Below are positions 1,299-30,969 of a DNA stretch of 64,000 bases, one piece after another (within the stretch, counting starts at the first letter, position 1; every line of letters starts with the position of its first letter). The DNA comes from Deltaproteobacteria bacterium (GTDB taxonomy: Bacteria; Desulfobacterota; Binatia; UBA12015), in NCBI GenBank assembly GCA_029262355.1, contig JAJCZO010000297.1, forward strand, positions 21,055 through 85,054, read 5' to 3'. Both the position numbers and the translations under genes were made by a program. Below the pieces are notes generated by a model. It had not been told where the DNA came from, ran no database searches, and saw only the letters and a list, made by a program, of their open reading frames with translations.

Positions 1299-1314
1299 GA
1301 AGCGAGCATCCTCA

Positions 1315-3311: not shown

Positions 3312-3733
3312 GGCAGGACATCATGGCGAGAATCGAGACGATACAGGTGGGCGACGGTCTGCCGGCAGAGGATCATACGCCCACGATCTTGGACCTTTTC
3401 TTCTACAACGCCGCAATCTGGAACGGACACCGGATCCATTTCGACGAGAAGTACACGACGCAAGAGGAAGGCTATCGGGGGATCGTGATCCAGGGGCCTT
3501 TGCAGGGTGACTGGATGAGCCAGTGCGTGATGGGTTGGCTCGGCGAGGAGGGCACGCTGGTCGAGTTCGAGTACAGCAATCGGTCTGCCGCCTACCTCGG
3601 CGATACGTTGCATGTAGGAGGGAGGGTGACGGCCGTGGACACCTCCTCGGGCGAGGTCTCGGTCGATCTCTTCGTTCGCAACACGGCGGGTGACGTCATC
3701 GCGCCGGGCGCGGCGCGGGTTCGCGTCGGATGA
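3308..3733 (+). CDS. MaoC-like (R)-specific enoyl-CoA hydratase/dehydratase catalytic subunit (ChsH2/HadB-like)
   Basis: Carries a hydratase-2-type motif NAAIWNGHRIHFDEKY (N/H/H/D) inside a hot-dog fold. It is translationally coupled to the preceding gene. Confidence 0.75.
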   Translation: MRQDIMARIETIQVGDGLPAEDHTPTILDLFFYNAAIWNGHRIHFDEKYTTQEEGYRGIVIQGPLQGDWMSQCVMGWLGEEGTLVEFEYSNRSAAYLGDTLHVGGRVTAVDTSSGEVSVDLFVRNTAGDVIAPGAARVRVG

Positions 3734-3737
3734 TCCG

Positions 3738-4916
3738 ATGAGCCGCTCCTCGAGCCTCCGCGGTGCCGTCGCGATCGTCGGTATCGGGGATACGGAAGTG
3801 GGCAAGCTGCCCGGCCGCGGCGCTACCGAGCTCACCATCGATGCCGGAGCGCGCGCGTTGCGTGACGCGAGCATCGACAAGAGTGCGATCGACGGACTGA
3901 TCACGTCCAACTCGATGGTCGATCCGCACATGTATCACGCGGAGATGGTTGCAGAGGCCATGCAGATCTTCCCGCGATACTGCATGACGCTTGCGGCGGG
4001 TGGTGCGACGAGTTTCGCGGCCATTCACCACGCCGCTTCGGCGATCGCGACCGGGCTGTGCGAAACCGTGCTGATCAGCTCGGCCGACAACCTGCGCACG
4101 GGACTCACGCGTGAGCAGGCGATGGTCCAGCAGTCTTCTACCGGCCATCCGCAGTTTGAGGCCCCGTACGGGGCCCCGGTGCCGGTGTCGTATGCGTTCA
4201 TCGCTCAGGCACACATGCACCAGTTCGGCACCACGCCGGAGCAGCTTGCTGCCGTCGCCGTCACTACGCGCCGGCACGCCTCGCTGAACCCGAACGCAGA
4301 GAAGCGCGGGCTGATCGACATCGGCGACGTGCTCGAGTCGCGCCTCATCGCGGATCCGCTTCACCTTCTCGACTGTTCGCTCGTGTCCGACGGAGGATCT
4401 GCCGTCGTCGTGACGAGCGCGGAGCGCGCCGTCGACCACCCGGAGCGACCGGTGTATCTGCTGGGCGCAGGCGAAGGCCACTCACACGAGCACATCTCGG
4501 CCGCGAAGAGCCTGGTGAGCTCGGCCGCGGCGGAGTCGGGAGAGCGCGCGTACGCGATGGCGGGCCTGACTCCGAAGGACGTCGACTTTGCCGAGCTCTA
4601 CGATTGTTTCACGCCGGTCGTCCTCATCGAGCTCGAGGATCTGGGCTTTTGTGCCAAGGGAGAAGGCGGTCCCTACGTGGAAGCCGGGCACACCGCGCTT
4701 GGGGGGCGGTTGCCGACGAACACGCATGGCGGACTCCTCTCGCACACGCACCCGGGCAACCCGGGGTCCATGTTCGCGCTGACCGAGGCCGTGATGCAGC
4801 TTCGCGGCGACGCTGGCGCGCGGCAGGTCGAGGGCGCCGAGGTCGGGCTGGTGCACGCACAGGGAGGAATCCTCTCCAGCCACTGCACGTTGCTCTTGGG
4901 GCGGGACGCATCATGA
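3738..4916 (+). CDS. Thiolase-fold protein of the Ltp2/SCP-x-like (retro-aldolase) type
   Basis: Shows thiolase-superfamily architecture (AIVGIGDTEVGKL... N-terminus and a glycine-rich C-terminus HTHPGNPGSMFALTEAVMQLRG). The start ATG 3738 lies 4 nt after the upstream stop. It is followed, with an ATGA overlap, by a DUF35 protein, and that pairing is characteristic of Ltp2-type aldolases. Confidence 0.75.
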   Translation: MSRSSSLRGAVAIVGIGDTEVGKLPGRGATELTIDAGARALRDASIDKSAIDGLITSNSMVDPHMYHAEMVAEAMQIFPRYCMTLAAGGATSFAAIHHAASAIATGLCETVLISSADNLRTGLTREQAMVQQSSTGHPQFEAPYGAPVPVSYAFIAQAHMHQFGTTPEQLAAVAVTTRRHASLNPNAEKRGLIDIGDVLESRLIADPLHLLDCSLVSDGGSAVVVTSAERAVDHPERPVYLLGAGEGHSHEHISAAKSLVSSAAAESGERAYAMAGLTPKDVDFAELYDCFTPVVLIELEDLGFCAKGEGGPYVEAGHTALGGRLPTNTHGGLLSHTHPGNPGSMFALTEAVMQLRGDAGARQVEGAEVGLVHAQGGILSSHCTLLLGRDAS

Positions 4917-6665: not shown

Positions 6666-8189
6666 ATGAACGCCGCAAAGCAGCGATTTGTGTGCGGGCT
6701 GTTGGCTGTAGTTCTCGCGCTGCCGACCGCCGCAGAAACGGTGGATGGCGCCGAGTCCGAGGCGAGCCGGCCCAACATCTTGCTCATCACGATAGATACC
6801 CAGCGAGCGGATTCCTTCGGGATCTACGGGAATGAGGGCAACCACACGCCCAACATCGATCGTCTCGCCGCGGGCGGCGTCGTGTTCGAGCGGGCGACGG
6901 CTCCCGTCGGAACGACCTTTCCTTCCCACGCCACTCTGCTCACCGGTCTTTATCCTCGCGCGCACGGTGTGCGCTACAACGGCGATGCGCTCGAAGAGGA
7001 GATCGTCACCCTTGCAGAGAGGCTCCTTCCGGCCGGGTACGAGACGATGGCGTTCGTGACGTACGGCTCGATGGTGAGTCGGGGCGGTCTGGGCCAGGGT
7101 TTCATCCGGACGAGCCATGAGAAGGATGGGCCCGCGGCGCACTCGACCAGTCCGAAACGCATCACCTCCATGGCTCGGGGGCTTCTGAAGCGCAAGCGCC
7201 CGTCGCCGTTCTTCATGTGGGTTCACTATTACCATCCGCATTCGCCCTACGATCTGACGCCGTACTCGAAGGAGAAGTTGGAAGGATACGAAGGGGCGTT
7301 CGCGGACGGGGCGACGGTGAAGGAGTTTTACACTCTACAGAACAAGGGAAAGCTGACCGACGACGATCGGAAGGCACTGCGCACGCTCTATGATGGCGAG
7401 ACACGCGAGGCCGATCGTACGGTCGGCTCGATCCTCGAGGCGTTGGAGGAGGCTGGGCACGCGAAGAACACGATCGTCGTCGTCACCTCGGACCATGGCG
7501 AGTTGCTCGGCGAGCATGACGACGTCGGCCACGGCCCGCGCTTGTGGGACCCGGTGCTTCGCGTCCCGCTCGTGATCTACGATCCGCGCGCGCCGCAGCC
7601 GCGCAGAGTCGCGTCGCGCGTGGGTCTCGTCGACGTATCGCCGACCCTCTTGGAGATGGTTGGACTCGAGGTTCCAGCTGGGATCGATGGCCGAAGCCTC
7701 GCGCCCGCGTTGCGCGGCGACGACCTCGACGATCGGCCGTATTACAGCGAGGTCAGCGCGGTTTCCCCGAGTCACAAGGCGCGGAAGCCGGGCGAGAAGA
7801 AGGGCCAAGGGCCGGATCAGACGAGGGCGCAGAAGAAGGACCAAAAGCCGGGCCAGAAGAAGGCGCTGAAGAAGGGCCAGAAGAAGGCGGCCAAGGTGCC
7901 GCGCAAAGAGCCACGCACGCATGAGTGGGATGAGACCGCGGTTGCCGTTCTCCTCGGAGACCAGAAGCTGATCGTGCAGAACGGTCAGGCTCGGCGGTAC
8001 GATCTGGCCAAGGACCCGGCGGAGCTCACGCCGATCCCCGACACCGCCGACGATCCCAGCGCCGCAGAGTTGATGAAGCTCGCGCAAGAGTACGGCAAGC
8101 GGAAGCAGCGAACGGGAGGACAGGTCGACCCGAAGGACCTCTCGCCGAAGGTCGAGGCCGAACTCCGGTCGCTCGGGTATCTTCAGTAG
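6666..8189 (+). CDS. Secreted sulfatase-like alkaline-phosphatase-superfamily enzyme lacking the FGly motif (Thr in place of Cys; T-F-P-S-H)
   Basis: Has a signal peptide and a sulfatase N-terminal metal-binding block (NILLITIDTQRADSFGIYG). The active-site motif reads TTFPSHATLLTG instead of C-x-P-x-R. It has a Lys/Gln-rich low-complexity insert and ends LRSLGYLQ, like its paralogue at 37603..38994. Confidence 0.8.
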   Translation: MNAAKQRFVCGLLAVVLALPTAAETVDGAESEASRPNILLITIDTQRADSFGIYGNEGNHTPNIDRLAAGGVVFERATAPVGTTFPSHATLLTGLYPRAHGVRYNGDALEEEIVTLAERLLPAGYETMAFVTYGSMVSRGGLGQGFIRTSHEKDGPAAHSTSPKRITSMARGLLKRKRPSPFFMWVHYYHPHSPYDLTPYSKEKLEGYEGAFADGATVKEFYTLQNKGKLTDDDRKALRTLYDGETREADRTVGSILEALEEAGHAKNTIVVVTSDHGELLGEHDDVGHGPRLWDPVLRVPLVIYDPRAPQPRRVASRVGLVDVSPTLLEMVGLEVPAGIDGRSLAPALRGDDLDDRPYYSEVSAVSPSHKARKPGEKKGQGPDQTRAQKKDQKPGQKKALKKGQKKAAKVPRKEPRTHEWDETAVAVLLGDQKLIVQNGQARRYDLAKDPAELTPIPDTADDPSAAELMKLAQEYGKRKQRTGGQVDPKDLSPKVEAELRSLGYLQ

Positions 8190-8198
8190 GTCTTCTGG

Positions 8199-9572
8199 TT
8201 AGGCGGTTAGACGCCGCAGGGCCTGCCTGCACCGGTGGCGGAGCTTTCTCGCTGCGCCGCGTGCCTGCTCGGCCGCCTTTGTTCGGTTGAGCTTGTTCTC
8301 CCGCATCCACGGCCAAACCCGTCGTAGGTTAGAGGGTGAGACCAGCCACTCGGGCTTCAGCCAGATGCCCCAGCGGTAGAGCCACAGGAGGTCTCGCGTC
8401 AAGATCCAGGGCCAGTCGCGATCGTTGAGCACGAAGACTCGGGAAGAGATCGACATCGTCTCGAAACCGAACCGGGCGCTGAAGGCGAAGCGGAGTGCCT
8501 GTGAGCACACTTCGAGATGTGCGGGCATCGGATCGGGGCCCAACGATTCCAAGGACCCGTTGGGGATCGACATCTCGAGGGTGACGCCCAGGTCTGGCAC
8601 CCGGACATGCACGGGCTGGAGTACGTTGATTCTCTTGCGGGTGAACTTGTCGTGAATGTCGGCTGAAAAGCTCGCGAAGATCTCTTGTAGTTCCACGACG
8701 GGCACGATCGGTGGCTCGTCCATCGGCAGCTCGGGAATCTTCGGTTCGTCCGCCTTGAAGCGCTCGATGTTCGCAGTAGAGTCGAACGGAGCCTCGACGT
8801 CGTACTCGTCGCCCGGGTAGAGAAGCGCCGAGTCGCAGCCCTCGTCGAGCAGGCGTTGATGCGCAGTGACGGGTCGGTTCGCGTAGGCGTTCACGAACCA
8901 GTTGTCGCGATTGGAGAAGTACACGAAGCTTGCGAACGGGATCGTGACCCTGGATTCGAGCCACCGGTGAACGTCGACGATATGAAGGAGAATCGACTCC
9001 GCCATGTATCGCAGCTCGTAGTCGTAGTCCTTGCCTCCGGTGTATCCTGCGAGGGAGAACTGCTTGAGCGCCACATCGACGTGGCCGAGGTCACGGGTCA
9101 TCGTTCGGCAGTCGTCTTCGGCCATCTGTGCGTCGTTCACGTTGACGCAGACCGAGCCTTCGCTGGTGACGGCAAGACACGAGTCACCGTAAGGGGCGTG
9201 ATAGCAGTAGACACTCATCGATGGGCTGATCGCCACCTGCTGGCGATGGCGCAGCAAGCGAATCTTCTCGAACCCGAGGCGGCGAAGCGCTGTGCAAACT
9301 TCGTCGCTTCCTCGATCCTGGTACAGAACCGTGACACGCTTCCTCCAGCTCTCAGGAAGGGAAGCGAGGGTCGGGAAATGGAGATGATCTGGGTGCTCGT
9401 GTGAGATCCATAGAAAATCGATGTCGTCGAGCCACTCTTCGCTCCACACCGCTTTGGGAAACAGACTCCACGAGTCGTTGAAGGCCTTCCCGAAGAGCCA
9501 CGGATCACACAGGACTGCTGCATCAAGTCCCGTGGTGATGACGGACGCGTGGCTGACGAGGCGGATCTTCAT
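8199..9572 (-). CDS. MBL-fold metallo-hydrolase with an uncharacterised C-terminal domain
   Basis: Carries an HEHPDH (HxHxDH) metallo-beta-lactamase motif near the N-terminus. It is 457 aa and is the last gene of the minus-strand operon. Confidence 0.7.
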   Translation of the reverse strand: MKIRLVSHASVITTGLDAAVLCDPWLFGKAFNDSWSLFPKAVWSEEWLDDIDFLWISHEHPDHLHFPTLASLPESWRKRVTVLYQDRGSDEVCTALRRLGFEKIRLLRHRQQVAISPSMSVYCYHAPYGDSCLAVTSEGSVCVNVNDAQMAEDDCRTMTRDLGHVDVALKQFSLAGYTGGKDYDYELRYMAESILLHIVDVHRWLESRVTIPFASFVYFSNRDNWFVNAYANRPVTAHQRLLDEGCDSALLYPGDEYDVEAPFDSTANIERFKADEPKIPELPMDEPPIVPVVELQEIFASFSADIHDKFTRKRINVLQPVHVRVPDLGVTLEMSIPNGSLESLGPDPMPAHLEVCSQALRFAFSARFGFETMSISSRVFVLNDRDWPWILTRDLLWLYRWGIWLKPEWLVSPSNLRRVWPWMRENKLNRTKAAEQARGAARKLRHRCRQALRRLTA

Positions 9573-9664
9573 GGTGCTGTCGGCTTATGATGCCGATTCG
9601 CATCCGGCCTCGCCAGCTGTGGGCCTGTCGGTATTTCAGCGGCTGGAGCCAAGAGCAACGCGCG

Positions 9665-11056
9665 TCAGGCGTCAGGGACGTCCTGGTGTGCATCGAGCAT
9701 CTTGACCATCAATCCCTCGACGAACTCGAGAGCTGCGGTGTCGCCCTTGGGAAGGCCCCCGTAAACGGCCCCCGTCGTCGCCTTCTCCTGCTTCGGGTTC
9801 TTGGCGTAGGCGACGCCTTCGGCGAGGTCGTTCTTGAAGCTCTCGACGACACCATCTTGGGTTTGCGGGCGCGTCACGCACATGTGGAGTGCATTCGGAT
9901 GCTGCTGGCCGTTGAAGCGCCAGCCGCGTTCCCGCATGAGGTCGTTTACATGGTAGATGTCGAACGCGTCCGAGCGGAAGGAGAAGCAGAACGCGGGCTT
10001 GCCCATGAGCTTGAGCTCGGGGAGGTCTTTCACGACGTCTTGCATTGCGTACGAGGTGTCGAAAATCTTCTTGGCGTACCGCAGGTAGCCGTCGCGGCCC
10101 ATGCTGACGAGTGAGGCCCAGGTTGCCGCGAGAATGCCGCCAGAACGACTGCCGGCGATGCCCGGGGAGAGGTACTTTCCGCCTGACCACTCTTGCTGCA
10201 TGAAGTAGAGCCCCTGGCGGAGCTTCTTGTCGCGGTAGCACAAGACCGAGCTTCCCTTGGGGCCGTATCCGTACTTGTGGGTGTCGGCCGAGATCGAAGT
10301 TACACCCGGGAGGCGGAAGTCGAACACCGGGATGTCGAATCCGAGTTCTTCGCCCCAGGGCAAGATCCACCCGCCGAGGCAGCCGTCGACGTGCAGGCCG
10401 ATGTCGTGCTGCACGGCGATCGCAGACAGTTCATCGATCGCGTCGATCGTACCGTAGCCGTAGTTGCAGGCCGATCCCACAAGGAGCGCGGTACGGTCTG
10501 TAATGTGGCTCTTCACGAAGTCGACGTCCACCAACGTCGTCTCGGGGTCGACGGGAGCCCTGATGACTTCGAGGCCGAACAGATGTCCGCCCTTCTCGAA
10601 CGCGACGTGTGCAGTCTCCGGCAGGATCATCTGCGGCTGAGTGATGCCACGGTGCTCGCGCGCGAACTCCCGGTACGCGAGGATCGCCGAGAGGATGCTT
10701 TCGGTGCCGCCGGAAGTCACGCTGCCGCATGGCGACGAGCCTTCGGGGGCCTGGCTCGCGTGAAGCATGTCGAGGGTCATCGCGATGATCTCGCCCTCGA
10801 ATCGGGTAGCGCTCGGACACATGTCGCGCTGCAGCGCGTTCACGTGCGAGTACATGCCGAACGCTTCGGTCATGAAGCCGTAGTGCTCCATGTCGCCGCA
10901 GTACATCGTCCCCGAGCACCGACCGGTCTGCCAGAAGCCGTCCTCGTCGTGCGCCATCTCGCGAAGCTCGCCCAGGACTTCTTCGCGGGGACGCCCCTTC
11001 TCCGGCATGCCTCGATTCACGGGATAGCGGTTTGCGTAGGGGTAGTAGTCAGCCAT
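9665..11056 (-). CDS. Group II PLP-dependent enzyme, sphingosine-1-phosphate lyase / decarboxylase family
   Basis: Has the PLP-lysine motif SISADTHKYGYGPKGSS with matching fold-type-I context. The start is trimmed to ATG 11056 (MADYYPYANRYP), preceded by a GAGGAGAGA RBS. The ORF-track extension to 11332 overlaps the upstream kinase. Confidence 0.8.
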   Translation of the reverse strand: MADYYPYANRYPVNRGMPEKGRPREEVLGELREMAHDEDGFWQTGRCSGTMYCGDMEHYGFMTEAFGMYSHVNALQRDMCPSATRFEGEIIAMTLDMLHASQAPEGSSPCGSVTSGGTESILSAILAYREFAREHRGITQPQMILPETAHVAFEKGGHLFGLEVIRAPVDPETTLVDVDFVKSHITDRTALLVGSACNYGYGTIDAIDELSAIAVQHDIGLHVDGCLGGWILPWGEELGFDIPVFDFRLPGVTSISADTHKYGYGPKGSSVLCYRDKKLRQGLYFMQQEWSGGKYLSPGIAGSRSGGILAATWASLVSMGRDGYLRYAKKIFDTSYAMQDVVKDLPELKLMGKPAFCFSFRSDAFDIYHVNDLMRERGWRFNGQQHPNALHMCVTRPQTQDGVVESFKNDLAEGVAYAKNPKQEKATTGAVYGGLPKGDTAALEFVEGLMVKMLDAHQDVPDA

Positions 11057-11067
11057 CGTGTCTCTCC

Positions 11068-12615
11068 TCAGCTCTTGTTGAGTGCGTCGTAGATTGGTTC
11101 GGTCTGCTCGTAGGCGAGCAGGAATTGTTTGAACAGGTGATCGTACGTCCTCTGTGCGTCCGCGCGCGGAATGTAGCGTCGTTCCACTGGACAGAACGCG
11201 TCGATGTCGTCGTCGGTCGCGAGACCCAGGCGACGGAAGACCAGGAATGCTGCGCCTCTCGTGTTGGCCTGGCGGGCCCCAGCGAGTTGGAGGACGGGTC
11301 GACCGGTCACGTCGGCCATGATCTGCGCCCACTGATCGGAGACCGCTCCGCCGCCGGAGTAGTAGAGGCTATCGAAGGTTTGCTTCGAGAAGGCCTCTAC
11401 GCCGGGCAGCATCCAGCGCAGATGATACGAGACGCCTTCCATCACGGCGCGCAGCATGTGGGCTCGTGTCGTCTCGAGAGTGATGTTCAGAAACCCACCC
11501 CGCATCGTTTCGCTCTGCTTGGGGGCCTGTGCTCCGGTGAGCCACGGGAGGAACAGGAGTCCGTCGCTGCCGGGCGGCACGTCGCGTATCGTTTCATCGA
11601 TCCATGCCCACGGGTCTTCGACGGTGTGTTTTCCGAGTGCGTCGGCCGCGTACACGACGTTGAGAAGGAAGTGCTCGACCAGCTTCCCGCCGAGCCCGAC
11701 CTCGGCCATCGACATGTACTCCCCAGGAATCGGGCTCGGCATGCTCACGATCTGGTACTCGCCGTCGGTGTTCTTCTCTTCGGCGCGCGCGAGAACCTGA
11801 ATCGTCGTGCCGACGTTGAGGCCGCCGCGGTTGGGTAGATACGTGCCCGTTCCGATCGTCACTGCCTGCGTGTCGTTGATGCCGGAGAAGACGGGAGTTG
11901 ACGGCAAGAGCCCAAGCTCCGTCGCGATCTCGGGCCGAAGCGGGCCGATGATCGAATCCACGGGCACGAGGGGAGGAAGCTTCGCCGGGTCGATCCCGGA
12001 GTACGCGACGAGGTCGGGGTCGTACTCGAGGCTCGAGAGGTCGCGGTTGTCGCTGAGCATGAGGGCAAATGCGGTGCAGCAGTTCGCCGTGAGCCTGCCC
12101 GTCAGGCGAGCATTCACGAAGTCGACCGGTTCGAGGAAGCAGTGGGTGCGCGCGTAGGCCTCAGGCAAGTCGTTCTTCACGTACAGCATGTGCGACAGGG
12201 AATCGGTTCCGAAGGGGAGAGCGCCGTGGACCTCGACCCATTTGATCAGCGCGTCGAGATCGCTCTTCACCAAGCCCTGTCCGTACTTGGCGCCGCGGCT
12301 GTCCATCCAGACGAGCAGGTTCGTCGTGGGGTTGCCATCGCCGTCGACCGGCACGAGTGAGAAGTAGTGGCTCGAGCAGAGGACGCCGACGATCTCTTCG
12401 GGGGGTCGACCGGCCTCGCGCACGACCTGCTGCACCGCCTGGACGATCGCCCGCCAGATCTCTTCGGGGTCTTGCTCGGCCCCCCCAGGGGGAATGCGGA
12501 TGGTCGCTACGGCGCGGTTCGTGTGGGCGGCGACGCGCCCGTCGGCCGCGACCAGAGCGACTTTCGGGCCGCTAGTGCCGAGATCGATCGCGAGGGCGTA
12601 TCGGTGATCTGCCAT
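11068..12615 (-). CDS. FGGY-family carbohydrate/polyol kinase
   Basis: Has the N-terminal motif AIDLGTSGPKVALV and the C-terminal motif YYSGGGAVSDQWAQIMADVTGRPV typical of the FGGY N and C domains. It is 515 aa. Confidence 0.85.
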   Translation of the reverse strand: MADHRYALAIDLGTSGPKVALVAADGRVAAHTNRAVATIRIPPGGAEQDPEEIWRAIVQAVQQVVREAGRPPEEIVGVLCSSHYFSLVPVDGDGNPTTNLLVWMDSRGAKYGQGLVKSDLDALIKWVEVHGALPFGTDSLSHMLYVKNDLPEAYARTHCFLEPVDFVNARLTGRLTANCCTAFALMLSDNRDLSSLEYDPDLVAYSGIDPAKLPPLVPVDSIIGPLRPEIATELGLLPSTPVFSGINDTQAVTIGTGTYLPNRGGLNVGTTIQVLARAEEKNTDGEYQIVSMPSPIPGEYMSMAEVGLGGKLVEHFLLNVVYAADALGKHTVEDPWAWIDETIRDVPPGSDGLLFLPWLTGAQAPKQSETMRGGFLNITLETTRAHMLRAVMEGVSYHLRWMLPGVEAFSKQTFDSLYYSGGGAVSDQWAQIMADVTGRPVLQLAGARQANTRGAAFLVFRRLGLATDDDIDAFCPVERRYIPRADAQRTYDHLFKQFLLAYEQTEPIYDALNKS

Positions 12616-12633
12616 GGGTGGGGTGGGTCCTCG

Positions 12634-14340
12634 TCAGATGGTGGGGGTGACGGTGACTGGGCTCTCGGCCCAACCGTAGCGCACGGCCTTTGCCTCGACC
12701 GTCGTACCGATTCGGGTAGAGAATTTCTCGGAGTAGACCTGCCACGGGCCGGCGTTGCCCGTGCCGTCGATGAGGCGGTAGCCGATCGAAGCGCCCTCGG
12801 ATGGGGACGACATCTCGATCATCACGTGGCCGTCGGTGGTCGGGTTCACACGCACGACAGGGCGGGCAGTGCCGGGTTGCTCACCCCCGGGCCAGTACGT
12901 TGCGATCATCTCCTCTTCCGGCATGTCGCTGAGATCGGGGCGCTCGGCCATCCACGTGTCGAGGGCCGTCCACATGCGGTCGAGCGTGGCGCGGTGCTGG
13001 GGGTCCTCTGCCAGGTTCGCGACCTCGAACGGGTCCTCCCAGGTGTCGTAGAGCTGGTTGGCGGGGCGCGGCTCGAACCACAGCCGCTGAGTCGGATCGA
13101 GCTTGCCGTCCTCGAAAAGCCGTCGGAGTTCGCGCATCATGGGTTGGTTGTTGCGGTAGGCGAGGTCGAGCGCGGCCGGGGTGCCCGGCGTGCCGGTGCG
13201 GATGTACTTGTAACGTTCGTCGCGTACGGCGCGTTCTTGGTCGGGCCACTCGTCGATCCGATCGCGCGAGGCGTAGATGTATTGGCGGGGCGGATCAGCG
13301 CTCATCCCGGCGAAGACCCTACCGTCGCTCCAGGCGGGAGTCTCGACTCCCGCAAGCGCGAGGATCGTCGCCGAGAGGTCGACGAAGCTCACGAGCCGCT
13401 CATCGACCGAGCCCGGCTCTACTCCTGCGGGGCGGAAACGCTCGGGCCAGCGAATGATCATCGGCACTCTGATGCCCGAGTCGAAGAGAGACCGCTTCCC
13501 GCGGGGCAGTCCGTCGCCGTGGTCGGTCGTCCAGATGACGATGGTCGAGCCGGCGAGGCCGTCCCGCTCGAGGGCGTCGAGTGTCGCGCCGACCTCTTCG
13601 TCCATGACGTGGATGTTCTCGTAGTGGCGCGCCATGTCGGCCCGCACCGTCGGCGTGTCGGGGAAATACGGGGGAATCTCGATGTCGGCGGGATTCATCA
13701 CGGGCTCGCGGCCCAGAGCCGCCCATGCTCGGCCCAAGACCGAGACGGCGTGAGAGACGCTTCGGGGCCAGGTGAGCGGGAAGACGCCGCTCTCGTGCGT
13801 CACGTTGTAGTTGATCTGGCCGTAGAACGGCTTGTCCCGCGGTGTGCCCGTCCAGTCGGCGCCGGACCATGTCTCGCGATCCCAGATGGTGAACGGACCG
13901 CTGCCGGGGAAGACGTGGCTGAACTGGTAGTCCAGCTTCGCCGTCGTGAAGGTGAAGTACCCGGCCTTGCGCAGCAGCTCGGGGAACGCCTTCACCTCCG
14001 GGGGCGGAACGGCCCGAAAGCTCTGCAGCCCGTACGTCCGCATGTGCTGACCACCAATCGCGGTTTGTCGCACGCCGGTGATCAGCCCCGCTCGGCTGGG
14101 CGCGCAGACGCCGGCAGTCGTGAAGGTGTTTGGAAAGCGAACGCCCTCGGTCGCGAGCCGATCGAGGTTGGGCGTGATCGCAACCTCGTCGCCGAAAGCG
14201 CCGATACGCGCGCTCAGGTCCTCGGCGGTCAGCAGGAGGATGTTCGGCCGTTGTTGGGGAAGCCGCCCGCCCGAGGGCCCTTGCTGGCACGCCGACAACA
14301 GCAGGGCTGCGGCAAGGGCGGCACAGACTCTCGAGTGCAT
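12634..14340 (-). CDS. Sulfatase (formylglycine-dependent, C-A-P-S-R), lipoprotein
   Basis: Canonical motif TAGVCAPSRAGLITG with a lipobox signal peptide MHSRVCAALAAALLLSAC. The start is trimmed to ATG 14340. It carries a C-terminal beta-sandwich extension. Confidence 0.85.
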   Translation of the reverse strand: MHSRVCAALAAALLLSACQQGPSGGRLPQQRPNILLLTAEDLSARIGAFGDEVAITPNLDRLATEGVRFPNTFTTAGVCAPSRAGLITGVRQTAIGGQHMRTYGLQSFRAVPPPEVKAFPELLRKAGYFTFTTAKLDYQFSHVFPGSGPFTIWDRETWSGADWTGTPRDKPFYGQINYNVTHESGVFPLTWPRSVSHAVSVLGRAWAALGREPVMNPADIEIPPYFPDTPTVRADMARHYENIHVMDEEVGATLDALERDGLAGSTIVIWTTDHGDGLPRGKRSLFDSGIRVPMIIRWPERFRPAGVEPGSVDERLVSFVDLSATILALAGVETPAWSDGRVFAGMSADPPRQYIYASRDRIDEWPDQERAVRDERYKYIRTGTPGTPAALDLAYRNNQPMMRELRRLFEDGKLDPTQRLWFEPRPANQLYDTWEDPFEVANLAEDPQHRATLDRMWTALDTWMAERPDLSDMPEEEMIATYWPGGEQPGTARPVVRVNPTTDGHVMIEMSSPSEGASIGYRLIDGTGNAGPWQVYSEKFSTRIGTTVEAKAVRYGWAESPVTVTPTI

Positions 14341-14389
14341 TACGGGCCTATACCACCGTTTCGAACTCGACCGGCAAGCACTCGGGAGC

Positions 14390-15403
14390 TCAGAGATCGG
14401 GGTGTGCCGTCTTCCAACACGACGCGGGCAGAGTGGCGAGTCCACGGCGCAGCGCCTGGGTCAGGATCTCGTGGGCGCGCTCGCCGGCGTGCTTGTTGCC
14501 TTGGGACACCCAGAGCGATCGCGGGTCTTCGCCCAGGAACAGGTCGAGAGAGGGGGCCACTCCGAGTCCGCGCTCCTTGGCGGCACCGGCTACGCGCTCG
14601 TACACCTGGTCGTAGGGGTGGAAGTGATGGAGCGAATCTAGCTGGGTCTGCAGGAGTACGAGGACGCATGCGTCGTACTGACGGCCCAGCGTCGCAAGGC
14701 GGTCGAGGTGCCCCGTGTAGGCCTGCCACGCCGCCTCATTGTGGAAGTAGTTGTCGAACATCTCGGCTGGGTAGGTGCCGGGTGCCCGGCGAATCCACGG
14801 CAGCTCTTGTAGGCCCATCTGAACGGCCCGGCTCAAGGCGCTCGCCGAGTGAACCGGTTTGGGGCGCATCCCGCGAGATGCCGACGAGCGGTAGAGGTCA
14901 CGGAGGCGGATGTCGGTCGGGGCGAAGCCGTACACGATGAGATCGGGCTCGTAGGCCAGCCCCACGGTCTCCAACCGCTTCATCGAGTGCTCGATGTTTG
15001 CGCCGGCGATCGCGACGTTCACGACTTCGATGCGCGGGGCTCGCTCCTCGGAGAGCTCGTCCTCGATACGCGCCGCGTAGGTTCGCTCCTCGGCCACCCC
15101 CGAGCCCATCGCGTTCGAACCACCGGTGGCGACGATCCGGAACACGTCATCGGGCTTCGGGGTGTCGTACTCGCGGTCGCGAATGCCCTGTGAGTTGGTC
15201 TCGAAGAGCTGGCCCGCGAAGATCCCACGCTGATCCTTGCGAACCAGATCGGCGAGGCCCTTCAGCCGTCTCAGTTCTTTGGAATGCACTCGCGGCGTAG
15301 GAGAGGGCGGGGGCGGTGCCTCGAGCCAAAAGCGCAGCCCAATCTCAGCGGCGCCAGCGAGCAGTCCGAGAGTGATCGCAATCGTGAGGATAGGCCGAAG
15401 CAC
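14390..15403 (-). CDS. SGNH/GDSL-like hydrolase, N-terminally membrane-anchored (tentative)
   Basis: Has an N-terminal TM helix, then VATGGSNAMGSG (a GDS-like block I) and a C-terminal His-containing block. It is the first gene of the minus-strand operon. Confidence 0.5.
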   Translation of the reverse strand: MLRPILTIAITLGLLAGAAEIGLRFWLEAPPPPSPTPRVHSKELRRLKGLADLVRKDQRGIFAGQLFETNSQGIRDREYDTPKPDDVFRIVATGGSNAMGSGVAEERTYAARIEDELSEERAPRIEVVNVAIAGANIEHSMKRLETVGLAYEPDLIVYGFAPTDIRLRDLYRSSASRGMRPKPVHSASALSRAVQMGLQELPWIRRAPGTYPAEMFDNYFHNEAAWQAYTGHLDRLATLGRQYDACVLVLLQTQLDSLHHFHPYDQVYERVAGAAKERGLGVAPSLDLFLGEDPRSLWVSQGNKHAGERAHEILTQALRRGLATLPASCWKTAHPDL

Positions 15404-15609
15404 CGCGCTCAGGGTGGCAGAGGGCGGGGAAGGTGTCGAAAGGTGGTTGCCGCCCTGCCTCTGGGCGGGTCCGAGGCATTCGGGGCTCGGGCCGACCCCG
15501 GCGGGTCGATGTCGGGGGGCATGGCTGGTCTCGTATCTCGGGCCTCCGGCGGCCCGCCGAAGGCCGTTGGCTGATCTCGCCCGCCGGTCTATATTCCTTG
15601 GGTAGACTG

Positions 15610-16017
15610 ATGCTCCGTCGAATCCTCAGTACCGTTCTCCTGTTGCTGCTGTGTCTGCCGGCCACCTCGCTGGCGGTGCTGTACACCTGCGCGATGGACG
15701 GTCTGACCCGGATGTCGAACTGCGATGAGCACGCCGAGCACCGCGCGCGCGTCCAGCGATCCGTGGCTCGGCCGGTCGCCCAGGCGGGCGGGCATGGTTG
15801 CGCCGCAGTCCCCGAGACGTGCTGCGAGAGCCGCGTCGTCACGGCGTCACTCGAGACCGCTCCGAGCAACGAGATTCCGACGCCGTCGGCCGCAGTCGGG
15901 TACGTGGCGTCGGTCGCAGATGCTGGCTTCGCCTCGGGCGGGGTTGGCAGCAGCCTCGACGCTCCGCGGTGGCGAGGTCCACCGTTGTACGCACGCTTCG
16001 CGTCCTACCTCATCTGA
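15610..16017 (+). CDS. Small secreted Cys/His-rich hypothetical protein (possible periplasmic metal-binding protein)
   Basis: Signal peptide MLRRILSTVLLLLLCLPATSLA, then CAMDGLTRMSNCDEHAEH and HGCAAVPETCCES. It lies 120 bp upstream of, and co-oriented with, the cusCBA-like genes. Confidence 0.45.
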   Translation: MLRRILSTVLLLLLCLPATSLAVLYTCAMDGLTRMSNCDEHAEHRARVQRSVARPVAQAGGHGCAAVPETCCESRVVTASLETAPSNEIPTPSAAVGYVASVADAGFASGGVGSSLDAPRWRGPPLYARFASYLI

Positions 16018-16137
16018 TCCACCCTACCCGCTGGTTTGGCCCGATGCGCGTTCGCACGGCCGAGCCGTCCACGTGACCACATCGGACGGGTCCGTGTGGT
16101 CCTCATGCGGGCGAACCGCATCCAGGGGTTGGTTGGA

Positions 16138-17517
16138 ATGAGTACGTTTGGAAGAAGACCGGGAATCGCCGCGTGCGTGTTCATCGCATGGGGCTGTAGC
16201 GCGTCGGCCGATCGCTACGCGTCGGTTCGGACCGAGGCATTCGGTCCAGCGGACGACCCTGCTCCCCGCGCTGTGACGGAGCCCGGGGTGCCGCTGGCGA
16301 ACCACGTTTGGGGGGACGCGACCGAGCTGCTGCTCGAATCGGTTCAGCGCGTCGCGAAGGCGCGCAACCCGACGCTCGCCGCGGCGCGTGCGTCGTGGCA
16401 GGCAGCGGTCGAGCGCTATCCCCAGGTAACCGCCTTCAAGGATCCGACTTTTGGTTACGCGCTGGCGCCGGGCTCGATCGACTCAGACGAGAGCATCTAT
16501 GGACAGAAGATCGAGGTCGCCCAGCGGATCCCCTGGCCGGGCAAGCTCGCTTTGCGCGGCGAGGCCGCGTTGGACGACGCACAGGCGGCGGGCGATGGAT
16601 TCGAGAGCGCGCGCCAACACCTGCAGCATGCGGTCACCGAAGCGTTCTTCGCGCTCTGGCTCACCCACCGATCGATCGAGATCAACCGCACCAACCAGAA
16701 CCTGCTTGCAGAGTTCCAAGAGGTTGCGGAAGGTCGCTACGGCGCCGGCCTCGCCTCGAAGAGCGACGCTCTTCAGGCCGAGGTCGAGCATCAGCACCTC
16801 ATTCATCGGGGCATCGCGCTCGAGCGCGACCGCAAGGTTGCCAAGGCGCGTCTCAATACCCTGCTGAAGCTGCCCCCGACGCATCCCCTGCCGCCGCCGC
16901 CGAAACGCGTTCCGAAGCCGAGAGGCATCGCGGCCTTGCCACGGCTGGAGAAGGTCGCTCTCGAGGGTCGCCCCGAGCTTCAGGCGCTCGAGCATTCGGT
17001 GGGGGCGCGCTTGGCCGACGTCGACCTCGCGCACCGTGAGTACTTTCCCGATTTCGCGCTGAATGCGGGGTACAACAGCCTCTGGGAAGTGGTCGACAAG
17101 CGTACGGTCGTTGGCATCGCGATCGATGTTCCGTTGCAACTGGGTCGTCGGCAAGCCGCCGTGAACGAAGCAGAGGCAGCGCACCGCCGGGCACAGGCCC
17201 GGCTCGAGGAAGGCCGGTCCGAGACTCTGCTGGAGGTGAGCGAGGCGTACGATCAGCTCGTCGAGACGGAGCATGTCGTTCACTTGTACGCGACATCTAT
17301 CCTTCCGGTGGCGCGGGAGAGCCGCGACACGGCCCGTGTCGGCTACGAGGCGGGATCCAACGACTTCTTGACGCTCCTTCAGACCGAGAAGTCGCTCTAC
17401 CTGGCGGAGCTGACGTATCAGGAGGCACTCGCCGCGTATCACCAGGGCCGGGCGCGTCTCGAGTTTGCGGTGGGCCGCTCGCTCGACGCACTGGATGGAC
17501 CGGAGGTCATGCCATGA
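16138..17517 (+). CDS. TolC-family outer-membrane efflux protein (CusC/CzcC-like)
   Basis: Shows the outer-membrane-factor coiled-coil repeat structure and a signal peptide from ATG 16138. Its stop overlaps the MFP start (ATGA). Confidence 0.8.
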   Translation: MSTFGRRPGIAACVFIAWGCSASADRYASVRTEAFGPADDPAPRAVTEPGVPLANHVWGDATELLLESVQRVAKARNPTLAAARASWQAAVERYPQVTAFKDPTFGYALAPGSIDSDESIYGQKIEVAQRIPWPGKLALRGEAALDDAQAAGDGFESARQHLQHAVTEAFFALWLTHRSIEINRTNQNLLAEFQEVAEGRYGAGLASKSDALQAEVEHQHLIHRGIALERDRKVAKARLNTLLKLPPTHPLPPPPKRVPKPRGIAALPRLEKVALEGRPELQALEHSVGARLADVDLAHREYFPDFALNAGYNSLWEVVDKRTVVGIAIDVPLQLGRRQAAVNEAEAAHRRAQARLEEGRSETLLEVSEAYDQLVETEHVVHLYATSILPVARESRDTARVGYEAGSNDFLTLLQTEKSLYLAELTYQEALAAYHQGRARLEFAVGRSLDALDGPEVMP

Positions 17518-18926
17518 AGCTGCTCTGCTGCGGGCTGGTCGCGGCGGCGTCGGCCGTCTTCGTCTCTTGCTCGGGACCTTCGGGTCCGGCCGAGGCGGGT
17601 CTCGTTGCGAAGGCTGGGCGGTTCCGGATCGAGGCGCGCTTCGATCCCGATCCTCCACAGAAGGGCTCGAACGTCGTTCGGCTGAAGGTCATGGACGATG
17701 GAGGCCTGCCCGCTGACGACGTTTCGGTACGCGGGTCCGCCGTCATGCCCGCCATGGGCGCCATGGCGGAGATGCGCGCGGGGGGCGAGGCGACGTCGAT
17801 GGGAGAGGGGCGTTTTCGGCTCGACGTCGATCTGTCGATGTCGGGTTCGTGGCCGCTCACCGTGTCGGTCACGGGCAGCGATGGGAAGACGGGCTCGGTT
17901 GGCTTCAACTACAAGACCGGGGTTCCCGTTCGCGTGGCGGGGAGTCGGTCGGCCGGGTCGTCGGAGGAAGCCGGAGTGATCGAGATCGACGCGCGTCAGC
18001 GTCAGTTGATCGGAGTGAAGACCGCGCCGGTCAGGCTCGGCCCGGCCGAGAAGTCGATTCGCGCCGTCGGGCGCGTGGCCTATGACGAGACCGGTCTGGC
18101 GGACGTGACGCTGAAGTTCCAGGGATGGATCGGCGAGGTCTTCGTGAACACGACGGGCGCGCCGGTCACGAAGGGGGAGGAGCTCTTCACCGTATATTCT
18201 CCAGAGCTGCTCTCGGCGCAGGAAGAGTTCCTCGAGAGCGCACGACGTGGGTCCAAACTGCTGTCGAGCGCGCGTCGCCGGCTGTCGCTCTGGAACCTCA
18301 CCAACGCTCAGATCGACGAGCTCTCCGTACGCGGAACACCACTGGTCTACGTCCCGATCCAATCCGCAGCGAGTGGGATCGTCGTGGAGAAGCATGTCGT
18401 CGACGGGAGCGCCGTCGCGCCCGGCCAGCTTCTCTACCGAATCGCAGATGTCTCCCAGGTGTGGATCGAAGCCGACGTCTACGAGTCGGATCTTCCCCTC
18501 GTGAAGGTGGGGGCCGCGGCCAGGATCTCCCTCACCTACCTGCCAGGAGAAACCTTCGAGGGAGTCGTCGACTACGTCTATCCGTATCTGGACTCGCCGA
18601 CCCGAACGGGTCGCGTGCGAATCGTCGTGCCCAATGAAACGGGGTCCCTCAAGCCGGGGATGTACGCGGACGTCGTTCTGCTCGCGGCCCTTGGCGATCA
18701 GCTCGTCGTGCCGGAAGCGGCGATCATTCGTTCGGGCAAGACGGACCTCGTATTCGTCGATCTCGGAGAGGGCCGGCTTGCGCCGCGTCGGGTTGAGCTC
18801 GGACGTCGGACGACGGATGGCTACGTGGTCCGCAGCGGTCTGGAGGCGGGCGAGACCGTCGTGACTTCTGGCAACTTCCTGATCGCGGCCGAGAGCAAGC
18901 TCAAGGCGGGCATCAGCCAGTGGTAG
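17514..18926 (+). CDS. RND efflux membrane fusion protein (CusB/CzcB-like) with Met-rich N-terminal extra domain
   Basis: Has HlyD/MFP barrel-sandwich, beta-barrel and MP domains (IEIDARQRQLIGVKTAPV...). The first ~130 aa are Met-rich (MPAMGAMAEMRAGGEATSMGEGRFRL). Confidence 0.85.
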   Translation: MKLLCCGLVAAASAVFVSCSGPSGPAEAGLVAKAGRFRIEARFDPDPPQKGSNVVRLKVMDDGGLPADDVSVRGSAVMPAMGAMAEMRAGGEATSMGEGRFRLDVDLSMSGSWPLTVSVTGSDGKTGSVGFNYKTGVPVRVAGSRSAGSSEEAGVIEIDARQRQLIGVKTAPVRLGPAEKSIRAVGRVAYDETGLADVTLKFQGWIGEVFVNTTGAPVTKGEELFTVYSPELLSAQEEFLESARRGSKLLSSARRRLSLWNLTNAQIDELSVRGTPLVYVPIQSAASGIVVEKHVVDGSAVAPGQLLYRIADVSQVWIEADVYESDLPLVKVGAAARISLTYLPGETFEGVVDYVYPYLDSPTRTGRVRIVVPNETGSLKPGMYADVVLLAALGDQLVVPEAAIIRSGKTDLVFVDLGEGRLAPRRVELGRRTTDGYVVRSGLEAGETVVTSGNFLIAAESKLKAGISQW

Positions 18927-21900
18927 AGCAGCCGCCGAATCGACCCGGGCTCGTCGCGAGACTCATCGCGACGTGCGCCGCGAATCCCATCGTCACTCTC
19001 ATCGCGGTGGGCGCATTTGCGGTATGGGGCTTCTTCTCGGCGCAGAGTCTCCCGCTCGACGCGATCCCCGATCTCTCCGACACGCAGGTGATCGTCTTCA
19101 CGGAATGGCCGGGCCAGAGTCCTGATCTCGTCGAAGATCAGGTGACATATCCGATCTCAACCACGTTGCTTGCGGCCCCGCAGGTGAAGTTCGTGCGGGG
19201 GCAGTCGTTTCTCGGGCTGTCCTTCGTCTACGTGATTTTCGAGGACGGAACCGACATGTATTGGGCGCGTTCTCGCGTGCTCGAGTACCTGGCCTCGGCG
19301 CAGGGCAAGCTCCCCGAGGGAGTGACGCCAACCATGGGGCCGGATGCGACCGGCGTTGGCTGGGTCTTCGAGTACGCACTCGTGGATCGTACCGGAAGCC
19401 AGAGCCTCGCGGATCTCCGCAGCTTTCAGGATTGGTACCTCCGATACTGGCTCGAGGGCGTGAAGGGCGTCGCAGAGGTCGCCTCGGTTGGCGGCTTCGT
19501 GAAGCAGTATCAGGTGAACGTCGACCCCAATCGGCTTCTGGCCTACGGGATCCCGCTGTCCGACGTGATCAAGAAGATCCGGCGGTCGAACGACGACGTA
19601 GGCGGCCGTGTTCTCGAGATCGCGGGCCACGAGCACTTCATTCGCGGGCGTGGCTACATCAAATCTCTCGACGATCTCGAAACGATTCCTCTTCGGCTCG
19701 GGGAGGGCGGCACGCCGGTGTTGCTGCGCGATGTCGCGACGGTGGAGATCGGCCCGGACCAGCGACGAGGGATCGCAGAGCTCGATGGCGAGGGTGAGGT
19801 CGTCGGCGGGATCGTCGTGATGCGCTACGGGGAGAACGCTCTGCGCGTGATCGAAGACGTGAAGACCCGACTCGAAGAGGTGAAGGGCTCACTGCCTGAG
19901 GGGGTCGAGGTCGAGATCACGTACGATCGCTCGGACCTGATCCTCCGCGCCGTGGATACGCTCCGCAGTACGCTCGTCGAGGAGATGATCGTGGTCAGCG
20001 TCGTGATCGCACTCTTCCTCCTGCACGTGCGCTCGGCGTTGGTTGCGATCGTGACGCTGCCGCTTGCGGTGCTCTTGTCTTTCATTCCGATGGCGTTGCA
20101 GGGCCTCACCGCCAACATCATGTCGCTCGCGGGAATCGCTGTGGCGATCGGCGCGATGGTCGATGCCGCCGTGATCATCATCGAGAACGTGCATAAGAAG
20201 CTGCAGACTTGGGAGACCGAGGGGCGGCCCGGCGACCGACAGACGGTCCTCATCGCGGCGATGCAGGAGGTTGGGCCGAGCATCTTCTTCTCGTTGCTCG
20301 TGATCACCGTGTCGTTCTTGCCGGTGTTCACTCTGCAGGCGACTGAGGGCCGTCTCTTCCGGCCACTCGCGTTCACGAAGACCTATTCGATGGGTTTTGG
20401 TGCGATTCTGGCCGTGACGCTCCTCCCCGCACTCGTCGTGCTGCTCATCCGCGGCCGGGTGCGCCACGAAAACGCGAATCCGCTCAACCGGTGGCTCATC
20501 GCCGGGTACACGCCCGTCGTCCGGTGGATCGTCCGGCGTCCATGGGCGAGCGTGTGCACGGCCATCGTCGTCATGGCGGCGACCGTGCCCGCGTTCTTCG
20601 CGCTGGGGACGGAGTTCATGCCTCCCCTGAACGAGGGCTCGATTCTCTACATGCCGACCGCCCCGCCCGGTATGTCGGTGACCGAAGCCGGGTCGACGCT
20701 GCGATCCATGGGGCGAGAGCTGAAGAAGTTTCCCGAGGTCGAGAAGGTTTTCGGAAAGATCGGCCGCGCACGCACGGCGACCGATCCGGCGCCTCTGTCG
20801 ATGGTCGAGACGGTGGTCACGCTGAAGCCGCAGTCGGAGTGGCGCGACGGGCTCGACTGGGACGGGCTCATCGCGGAGATGGACGAGGCGCTGCACTATC
20901 CCGGCATGCCGAACATCTGGTGGATGCCCGTCCAGACTCGGACCGAGATGATGGCAACGGGCATTCGAAGCGCACTCGGTATCAAGGTCTTCGGGCCAGA
21001 TCTCGCGGGGATCGAGGCCCTTGCGGTGCAGATCGAGAAGGCGCTCCTCTCCGACTCGCGTACTCAGCCCTACACCCGAAGTGCGTTCGCGGAGAGAATT
21101 ACCGGTGGCTACTTCATCGATCTCGAGGTGAATCGGCTCCAGGCGGCACGTCACGGACTGACCGTGGGGGACGTCGAGGACGTCGTCGCATCGGCGATCG
21201 GCGGCATGAACATCGCCGAGACGATCGAAGGACGCGAGCGATACCCAATCAACGTGCGCTATGCGCGCGATTTTCGTCAGGATCTCGACTCGCTCTCTCA
21301 GGTGTTGGTGGCGACTCCGATGGGCGCACAGGTGCCGCTCCTCCAGGTCGCGACGATGGACCGGAAGACCGGCCCCCCGATGATTCGAAACGAAGACGGC
21401 CAACTCGTCGGCTTCGTGTTCGTCGATGTCGCCGGGGAGGGCATCATCGACTACGTCGACGCGGCAAAGGCGGTCGTCGCGCAACGAGTCGATTTGCCGC
21501 CGGGCTACCGGATCGCCTGGGCCGGACAGTTCGAATACTTCGAAAGAGCGAAGGCGCACTTGATTCTGATCGTGCCCCTCACGCTCTTCCTGGTCGTTTT
21601 GCTGCTGTATGCAAACACCCGATCCGTCGTAGAGACCGCGATCGTCTTGCTCGCGGTGCCGTTTTCCCTGGTGGGTGCGGTGTGGCTGCTCTACGTGCTG
21701 GACTACGACATGAGTGTCGCGGTGTGGGTGGGCTTCATTGCGTTGGCTGGTCTCGATGCGGAGACCGGTGTGGTGATGCTGCTCTACCTCAAGCTTGCCC
21801 ACGATCATCGCAAGAAGGAGGGCCGGCTTCAGACGGAGGCGGATCTCGATGAGGCCATCGTCGAGGGCGCCGCGCGACGCATTCGCCCCAAGTTCATGAC

Positions 21901-28712: not shown

Positions 28713-28729
<17 letters not shown>
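27710..28729 (-). CDS. meaB: Methylmalonyl-CoA mutase-associated GTPase MeaB/ArgK
   Basis: P-loop [12 protein letters not shown], with G-protein switch and base-specificity motifs (NKAD). It overlaps the 3' end of the mutase gene. Confidence 0.85.
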
Positions 28730-30890
<2,161 letters not shown>

Positions 30891-30969
30891 GAACGAGTAG
30901 GATGGTGGTCGGGCTCGTCGCTTGCAAATCTGCGGAAGGGGCGGCTCCTCGCCCGAATTGGAGGAATGG

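Follow-up and report, generated by a model that had tools for sequence, protein, structure and literature searches.

An FGGY-family kinase paired with a sphingosine-1-phosphate lyase homologue in a Binatia genome and in other bacterial phyla: a candidate module for sphingoid-base degradation

Introduction

Degradation of sphingoid bases in eukaryotes takes place in two steps, in which a long-chain-base kinase phosphorylates the C1 hydroxyl and a pyridoxal phosphate (PLP)-dependent sphingosine-1-phosphate lyase (SPL), Dpl1 or SGPL1, then cleaves the C2-C3 bond to give phosphoethanolamine and an aldehyde. Soluble bacterial lyases of sphingosine 1-phosphate (S1P) have been solved and assayed, but they have mostly been read as tools against host S1P: S1PL2021 and S1PL2025 of Burkholderia pseudomallei and StSPL of Symbiobacterium thermophilum were investigated as single enzymes and, in the pathogen, with a view to their action on host S1P. 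A sphingoid-base kinase has not, to our knowledge, been described from any bacterium, which raises the question of where a free-living bacterium would obtain the phosphorylated substrate. Here we analyse a stretch of 64,000 nucleotides from a Deltaproteobacteria bacterium (GTDB lineage Desulfobacterota, Binatia, UBA12015; assembly GCA_029262355.1, contig JAJCZO010000297.1, forward-strand positions 21,055 to 85,054), hereafter the window, in which the gene of an FGGY-family kinase (G3) lies directly upstream of the gene of an SPL homologue (G4).

S1PL2021 cleaves S1P in vitro, so that the aldehyde plus phosphoethanolamine chemistry is demonstrated for that enzyme, not for G4 (PMC5234717); a search for the word 'kinase' in the paper that describes it found no occurrence. 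In the window, an initial annotation made from the sequence alone had drawn G3 and G4 into a single five-gene operon (G1 to G5 in order of transcription) that would couple deacylation and desulfation to phosphorylation and PLP-dependent cleavage of a sulfated, acylated substrate. Comparison with related loci retains the kinase-lyase pair as the conserved element and sets the outer genes apart from it. The pathway logic and the lyase family are already known; what is new is the joining of an unassigned kinase clade to SPL.

Results

G4 is classed with the SPLs

The two genes of the pair, and the signal between them, are the following.

11068-12615, minus strand: G3, FGGY-family kinase, 515 amino acids (PF00370 and PF02782)
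9665-11056, minus strand: G4, SPL-family PLP enzyme of the soluble bacterial type, 463 amino acids (match to PDB 5k1r)
11061-11069, minus strand: Shine-Dalgarno-like GAGGAGAGA, read from the sequence, overlapping the TGA stop codon of G3 and 4 nt upstream of the G4 ATG (11056)

G4 is assigned to the SPL family (EC 4.1.2.27; PLP fold type I, group II decarboxylase-like). It matches PF00282 at 7e-18, S1PL2021 (PDB 5k1r) at 1e-186 with 62% identity over 435 residues, StSPL (PDB 3mad) at 1e-122 with 44% identity, and the human and yeast SPLs among the PDB matches at about 1e-99. The lyase is hence homologous to that of the eukaryotic pathway; unlike the latter, G4 is soluble and devoid of an N-terminal membrane anchor, and in bacteria the kinase and lyase genes are adjacent. 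The best decarboxylase matches in the PDB are far weaker (MfnA 1e-28, GAD 1e-20), and the MfnA model TIGR03812 is reached at 1e-64, under its cut-off. The PLP-site residues G126, T127, H159, D233, C235, D268, H270, K271 and S313 of S1PL2021 correspond to G117, T118, H150, D224, C226, D258, H260, K261 and S303 of G4 and all are kept, K261 (K271 in S1PL2021) being the PLP-binding lysine. Among 16 homologues the cofactor-site positions other than T118 are invariant, as is K267, while T118 falls outside the invariant or near-invariant positions. The initial annotation had placed G4 in the SPL/decarboxylase family; it lies on the SPL side, and not within a clade of amino-acid decarboxylases.

Residues 73-78 of G4 read NALQRD, as in S1PL2021, at a place near the active-site region where StSPL has NPLHPD, a change from His to Gln. 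A search of plasmids with G4 gave only homologues of 33-38% identity, and the two that were inspected stand in unrelated contexts: one among amino-acid genes in Alisedimentitalea, the other, 35% identical, between serC and a polyketide synthase gene on plasmid bgla_1p of B. gladioli BSR3 (L172, 94192-99535). The enzyme of the B. gladioli plasmid, an SPL-like PLP protein, probably has a different, biosynthetic role. The plasmid homologues are uninformative on the subfamily of G4.

G3 belongs to a separate clade of FGGY kinases

G3 contains both FGGY domains (PF00370, 3e-39 and 135 bits for a cut-off of 29; PF02782, 3e-21 and 77 bits for a cut-off of 27), and its motifs DLGTSG, INDT, which holds the catalytic Asp, and GGGA align with those of E. 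coli XylB. The DAGK catalytic domain, PF00781, is not matched by G3 in the Pfam scan; the kinase is of the FGGY type, with an actin/hexokinase fold, rather than of the DAGK_cat type found in eukaryotes, just as had been annotated. In its two domains, catalytic Asp and ATP motifs G3 resembles XylB, gluconokinase, glycerol kinase and the autoinducer-2 (AI-2) kinase LsrK. It differs from them in staying under all 12 NCBIfam FGGY equivalog cut-offs, the nearest named models being xylulokinase (XylB, TIGR01312; 232 against a required 380) and gluconokinase (170 against 649), and in belonging to a clade defined by its linkage to SPL; instead of a sugar, an amino-alcohol or lipid is proposed as its substrate. 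A neighbour-joining tree built from 120 FGGY sequences groups the SPL-linked kinases into a single clade with 59 members and leaves E. coli XylB, a gluconate kinase and all 59 unlinked FGGY proteins outside it. The SPL-linked kinases are thus classed as a distinct FGGY subfamily, separate from the named equivalogs. Since the GAGGAGAGA ribosome-binding site of G4, already pointed out in the initial annotation, overlaps the stop codon of G3, translational coupling of the two genes is suggested.

The FGGY-SPL pair is conserved in at least four phyla

Conservation was followed from the side of either gene. In the forward test, one genome per GTDB species was scanned with an SPL alignment, which gave 80 loci with SPL 62-81% identical from Myxococcota, 'delta proteobacteria', Binatia, Chloroflexota, Acidimicrobiia and other Actinomycetota including Mycolicibacter; neighbouring genes were found by tblastn with the window proteins. 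In 47 of the 80 species-representative loci an FGGY kinase adjoins SPL, and the two genes share a strand without exception; of the other 33 loci, 10 break off near SPL and 23 extend for 2 kb or more to either side of it. The gap between the genes is mostly 9-150 bp, and in three loci the SPL match starts at the base where the FGGY match stops. Together with contigs from exact-protein look-ups and from a metagenome scan, the forward-test loci amount to 57 non-redundant pairs, 39 of them in the order FGGY>SPL and 18 in the order SPL>FGGY (the latter found in the cultured carrier Mycolicibacter acidiphilus M1, L063), over which the identities of the two proteins to those of the window are correlated (Spearman rho 0.74).

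In the reverse test metagenomes were scanned with G3, and loci were collected from 82% down to 26% identity. An SPL gene is adjacent in 13/13 informative loci with an FGGY kinase at least 38% identical; eight further loci at or above that level have no SPL match, and their contigs end within about 0.7 kb of the FGGY gene. At 33% identity or less, SPL is found in 0/59 loci. Because the forward test, the reverse test and the single kinase clade agree, the FGGY-SPL pair is regarded as a conserved and specific module in at least four bacterial phyla (Myxococcota, Binatia, Chloroflexota and Actinomycetota), and this two-way conservation bears out the kinase-then-lyase logic first read from the window. 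All-against-all clustering of the neighbours revealed no other kinase in those SPL loci that are without FGGY.

The surroundings of the pair were surveyed in a Pfam census of 122 genes flanking 31 FGGY-SPL pairs (a further 74 neighbours lie outside the census), in which no transporter, regulator or aldehyde dehydrogenase is conserved; a lipid substrate able to permeate the membrane would agree with the absence of a conserved transporter. A HisN-type phosphatase gene is interposed between FGGY and SPL in one subgroup of Myxococcota (L016, L019, L023, L098, L099 and L100). This member of the inositol-monophosphatase family (L019:9145-9939, L099:7580-8395) passes the NCBIfam equivalog cut-off for HisN, histidinol-phosphatase, with 278-296 bits against 275. 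Its position fits a chemistry of 2-amino-alcohol phosphates, and either phosphoethanolamine or the product of the kinase could be the substrate of the enzyme. Lipid hints near the pair are scattered: acyl-CoA dehydrogenases in a few loci, a cytochrome P450 or SGNH esterase as variable first gene, and a DAGK_cat/YegS-type lipid kinase in L007 and L008. The gene of the last is co-directional with the pair and lies two places upstream of it, an arrangement confined to these two related Chloroflexota genomes (L007, 962-1870; L008, 6511-7419), with a cupredoxin-like gene in between.

A mosaic array around the pair

The features that surround the pair in the window are listed here.

14390-15403, minus strand: G1, SGNH/GDSL esterase, membrane-anchored, 337 amino acids (family profile against SGNH structures)
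12634-14340, minus strand: G2, exported lipoprotein formylglycine sulfatase, SulfAtlas S1_8-like, 568 amino acids (PF00884, SGSH_C, CAPSR, lipobox)
8199-9572, minus strand: G5, MBL-fold metalloprotein with a helical C-terminal region, 457 amino acids (AlphaFold2/Foldseek, HEHPDH)
6666-8189, plus strand: S2, a further sulfatase, converging on G5 across a gap of 9 bp and outside the array as first annotated (PF00884, 1e-46)
15404-15558, no strand: divergent intergenic region between G1 and a small plus-strand open reading frame (ORF), presumed promoter region

G2 matches PF00884 at 1e-38 and contains an SGSH_C domain, the motif CAPSR and the lipobox LLLSAC. Its best solved relatives are the S1_8B, S1_8A and S1_8C sulfatases (4e-70 to 1e-54), followed by SGSH (7e-32); the S1_8 assignment is made from best matches only, not from a SulfAtlas tree. 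With the S1_8 enzymes, which include lambda-carrageenan galactose-2-sulfatases, and with SGSH it shares the CxPxR motif and the SGSH_C domain; unlike the S1_8 enzymes it is a lipoprotein encoded beside a kinase-lyase pair and not in a polysaccharide-utilisation locus. In L001, L086/L087, L088/L089 and L092 the gene immediately upstream of FGGY is a G2 orthologue of 70-76% identity. L001 has the order sulfatase-FGGY-SPL between different flanks, L092 ends its contig at sulfatase-FGGY, and L088 has SPL about 12 kb downstream of sulfatase-FGGY on the same contig, so that the adjacency of sulfatase and FGGY is kept in five contigs with differing flanks, L088 included. A G2 orthologue stands beside the pair only where the FGGY kinase is at least 78% identical; beyond this narrow clade there are only distant sulfatases, 24-31% identical, near SPL in L020 and L030. 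G2 is hence counted as a third partner solely within the close clade of the window itself, which is probably Binatia. Of the tie of the pair to sulfatase and esterase steps that had been annotated, the sulfatase part holds within this clade, and the esterase part does not, for G1 is not kept.

The nearest relative of the window, L086 (GCA_029243485.1, Candidatus Binatia bacterium), is 73-90% identical across ten genes. Its order is CusCBA-like efflux genes, a small ORF, a cytochrome P450, sulfatase (76%), FGGY (84%) and SPL (90%); G1, G5 and the second sulfatase are all missing, and where the window has G1, L086 has the P450 gene (7020-8195). Synteny with L086 and the 90% cluster mate MDG2306954.1 make Binatia a more likely taxon for the window than Myxococcota. 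The gene at 14857-16326 of L086, about 1.7 kb on the downstream side of SPL, encodes a 489-residue Exo_endo_phos protein, of a superfamily that includes bacterial sphingomyelinases.

G1 alone reaches PF13472 only at E = 7e-4, under the Pfam cut-off. A profile of 41 members of its family matches solved SGNH/GDSL esterases at 2e-12, PF13472 being found in 41/41 members; it is through this family profile, and not through the single-sequence Pfam score, that the SGNH-like annotation of G1 stands. The columns of Ser96, the block I nucleophile, and His305 of block V are invariant in the family; residues 94-96 of G1 at block I are GGS where over 90% of the family has GDS, the Ser being kept. From its sequence, G1 has a hydrophobic helix at the N terminus. 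No G1 orthologue adjoins FGGY or SPL in more than 100 related loci, the sole trace being a faint 28% match in L009, about 3 kb from SPL and on the opposite strand.

G5 has the HxHxDH motif that had been annotated, as HEHPDH, invariant in its family. It matches PF13483 at 9e-6 over the N-terminal 85 residues only. Its AlphaFold2 model (mean pLDDT 92) is paired by Foldseek with many MBL-fold structures at a probability of 1.0, and the top matches, with similar E-values, are the diiron hydroxylases FrsH and CmlA, NAPE-PLD and other hydrolases. The annotated MBL fold is thus upheld; 'hydrolase' is not established, because these matches mix hydrolases and diiron hydroxylases. The family is widespread, its members being labelled 'UDP-MurNAc hydroxylase' at JGI. 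As with G1, no orthologue of G5 adjoins SPL or FGGY in the more than 100 related loci. In L090 a 67% homologue of G5 is convergent with a 61% orthologue of S2, among further sulfatases and without FGGY or SPL, and a 56% homologue in L091 stands in yet another context; G5 and S2 probably form a separate module. From these comparisons the five-gene array is read as a mosaic of a variable first gene, G1, a clade-level trio, G2-G3-G4, and a separate G5-plus-sulfatase module. In this reading G1 and G5 are lineage-specific neighbours and not conserved partners, though they may be co-transcribed with the pair.

Layout and context in the window

The annotated layout was confirmed exactly. All five minus-strand ORFs are found at the coordinates first given (15403-14390, 14340-12634, 12615-11068, 11056-9665 and 9572-8199), the NCBI gene calls, on a contig of 95,505 bp, are identical, and third-position G+C is high in all of them, as in real genes (the G+C content of the window is 60-68%). 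The gaps are of 49 bp (G1-G2), 18 bp (G2-G3), 11 bp (G3-G4) and 92 bp (G4-G5). The support for a single five-gene transcription unit consists in this spacing and the shared strand. Scans of the locus for promoters and terminators gave matches no more numerous than in shuffled sequence, with no terminator predicted on the minus strand; the sole sigma-70-like match, at 15567-15595 on the plus strand, is part of a count not above that of shuffled sequence. The Rfam scan was uninformative.

Divergent from G1-G5, positions 15559-22108 encode a small plus-strand ORF (no Pfam match; 59% identical in L086) and then a CusCBA-like OEP / HlyD-CusB / AcrB efflux operon, a block syntenic with L086. At 1240-4916, on the plus strand, are an acyl-CoA synthetase (AMP-binding) and an SCP-x-type thiolase, 86-89% conserved in L086, where ChsH2-like and MaoC-like hydratase genes lie between the two; this beta-oxidation-like block is also found near SPL in L005. 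Methylmalonyl-CoA mutase and its MeaB GTPase are encoded at 27710-31067 on the minus strand, and the same pair occurs near the sulfatase-FGGY genes of L088. The 64-kb window contains three formylglycine-type sulfatases, at 6666-8189 (plus), 12634-14340 (minus) and 37603-38994 (minus), and a GH67_N/DUF4838 protein; of the ORFs of the window that were scanned, none was seen to encode a formylglycine-generating enzyme.

Discussion

A kinase-lyase model for sphingoid bases

Taking into account that: (i) G4 is 62% identical to an S1P-active enzyme; (ii) no transporter is conserved beside the pair, and (iii) scattered lipid hints occur in its vicinity, we favour a lipid substrate for the module. In the model, G3 would transfer phosphate from ATP to the primary hydroxyl at C1 of a 2-amino-1,3-diol; sphingoid long-chain bases, for instance sphinganine or sphingosine, are the most likely substrates. 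G4 would then form a PLP aldimine with the C2 amine, and subsequent retro-aldol cleavage of the C2-C3 bond would release phosphoethanolamine and an aldehyde into general metabolism. The order of steps would be that of the eukaryotic route, with an FGGY kinase replacing the unrelated DAGK-type long-chain-base kinase. In the window's clade, the exported S1_8-type lipoprotein sulfatase G2 would have been added in front, presumably unmasking a sulfated substrate outside the cell. Substrate, direction of flux and co-transcription are what we infer here, starting from the observed family matches, active-site residues and pattern of conservation. We give a probability of about 0.5 to the reading that the kinase-lyase module acts on sphingoid bases, as a conserved two-gene core inside a mosaic array.

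A fuller proposal would identify the SPL-linked FGGY clade with the sphingoid-base kinase so far missing from bacteria, and the FGGY family would thereby gain its first member acting on lipids or amino-alcohols; with SPL the clade would make up a widespread, self-contained module degrading or detoxifying environmental sphingoid bases, and to which marine Binatia would have added an S1_8 sulfatase for sulfated (O- or N-sulfo) sphingoid-like compounds. We advance it tentatively, holding the odds to be somewhat against it. Full-text searches, with subscription literature outside their scope, found no paper linking FGGY kinases (xylulokinase, carbohydrate kinase) with SPL; the earlier statement that no pathway of this composition is described agrees with the literature searched.

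Several observations count against a sphingoid substrate. All FGGY kinases characterised so far act, as far as we know, on soluble sugars or polyols and not on lipids. No Pfam family is enriched beside the pair in the census, the most frequent, Acyl-CoA_dh and DAO, reaching 3/122 each, and lipid-metabolism genes are not enriched either. There are 23 SPL loci without FGGY within 2-10 kb of sequence on either side. Characterised S1_8 sulfatases act on hexose 2-sulfates (PMC12549532), and the solved SGSH matching G2 is N-sulphoglucosamine sulphohydrolase, which indicates a carbohydrate-like substrate. Finally, S1PL2021 turns S1P over slowly (kcat 0.015 per s, KM 48 µM, kcat/KM about 320 per M per s; PMC5234717), and because of this slow turnover S1P is perhaps not the native substrate of the SPL subfamily to which G4 belongs.

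Alternative readings

Part of this evidence would be accommodated if the same kinase-then-lyase chemistry were directed to a small water-soluble amino-polyol (serinol, a 2-amino-2-deoxy-alditol or another aminosugar-derived 2-amino-1,3-diol), which could come from sulfated marine glycans via the S1_8 sulfatase and would yield phosphoethanolamine and a short hydroxy-aldehyde or formaldehyde. Such a substrate agrees with the sugar and polyol kinases of the FGGY family and with the xylulokinase and gluconokinase models nearest to G3, with the action on hexose position 2 of the sulfatases with which G2 groups, with the slow turnover of S1P, and with the sulfatases and GH67_N/DUF4838 protein of the window. 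However, a hydrophilic compound would normally need a transporter, and conserved transporters for sugars or amino acids are lacking next to the pair; the closeness of G4 to an enzyme that cleaves long-chain S1P also speaks against it, and a sulfatase linked only in a narrow clade has little bearing on the substrate of the pair overall. We consider this possible, with the odds clearly against it. The one-pathway reading of the initial annotation, in which a sulfated, acylated amino-lipid passes in turn through esterase, sulfatase, kinase and lyase, the MBL protein adding a fifth step, could draw on the co-directional genes with gaps of 11-92 bp and no minus-strand terminator predicted, on the membrane helix of G1 and the lipoprotein signal of G2, through which both can meet an external or membrane substrate, and on the lipid phosphodiesterase NAPE-PLD among the fold relatives of G5. 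The five-gene unit was not sustained when other genomes were compared: apart from the faint G1 match of L009, neither G1 nor G5 has an orthologue beside FGGY or SPL, the closely related L086 has a P450 for G1 and no G5, and in L090 G5 pairs with S2 away from both genes. Because the five genes are not a conserved unit and G2 is a partner only in a narrow clade, conservation does not indicate a sulfated, acylated substrate, and a single pathway of all five is improbable.

The adjacency of FGGY and SPL might instead be an inherited gene order without a shared pathway, an ordinary pentulose or gluconate kinase standing next to an SPL that acts alone on host- or prey-derived S1P. The informative SPL loci that have no adjacent FGGY are in line with it, as is the discussion of the characterised bacterial SPLs as acting on host S1P (PMC5234717, PMC12134224). 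It is difficult to reconcile with an adjacency kept in at least four phyla and in two gene orders, with the 13/13 against 0/59 of the reverse test, with linked kinases that form one clade under all equivalog cut-offs, and with the three loci in which the two matches abut, all of which make it very improbable. G4 might also be a group-II decarboxylase acting on a phosphorylated amino acid supplied by the kinase, by analogy with threonine kinase and threonine-phosphate decarboxylase, and it does match PF00282 and, under its cut-off, the MfnA model. The SPL matches are nevertheless stronger by more than 150 orders of magnitude, and the assayed S1P lyase to which G4 is 62% identical has the same PLP site. 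The decarboxylase identity of G4 was rejected because of this gap in E-value and the shared PLP site, and a phosphorylated amino acid is scarcely credible as its substrate.

Biological meaning

The sphingoid-base reading would offer, in a dedicated kinase clade beside SPL in four phyla, a concrete candidate for the sphingoid-base kinase of bacteria. If it is true, the substrate range of the FGGY family extends beyond sugars, and new annotations could be given to hundreds of genes that now carry the label 'xylulokinase' or 'class V aminotransferase'. Should the substrate be a small amino-polyol, the pair would represent a new catabolic pathway, with SPL chemistry outside lipid metabolism. If the module does act on sphingoid bases, bacteria in soils and oceans would possess a route of sphingoid-base turnover that yields carbon, nitrogen and phosphorus.

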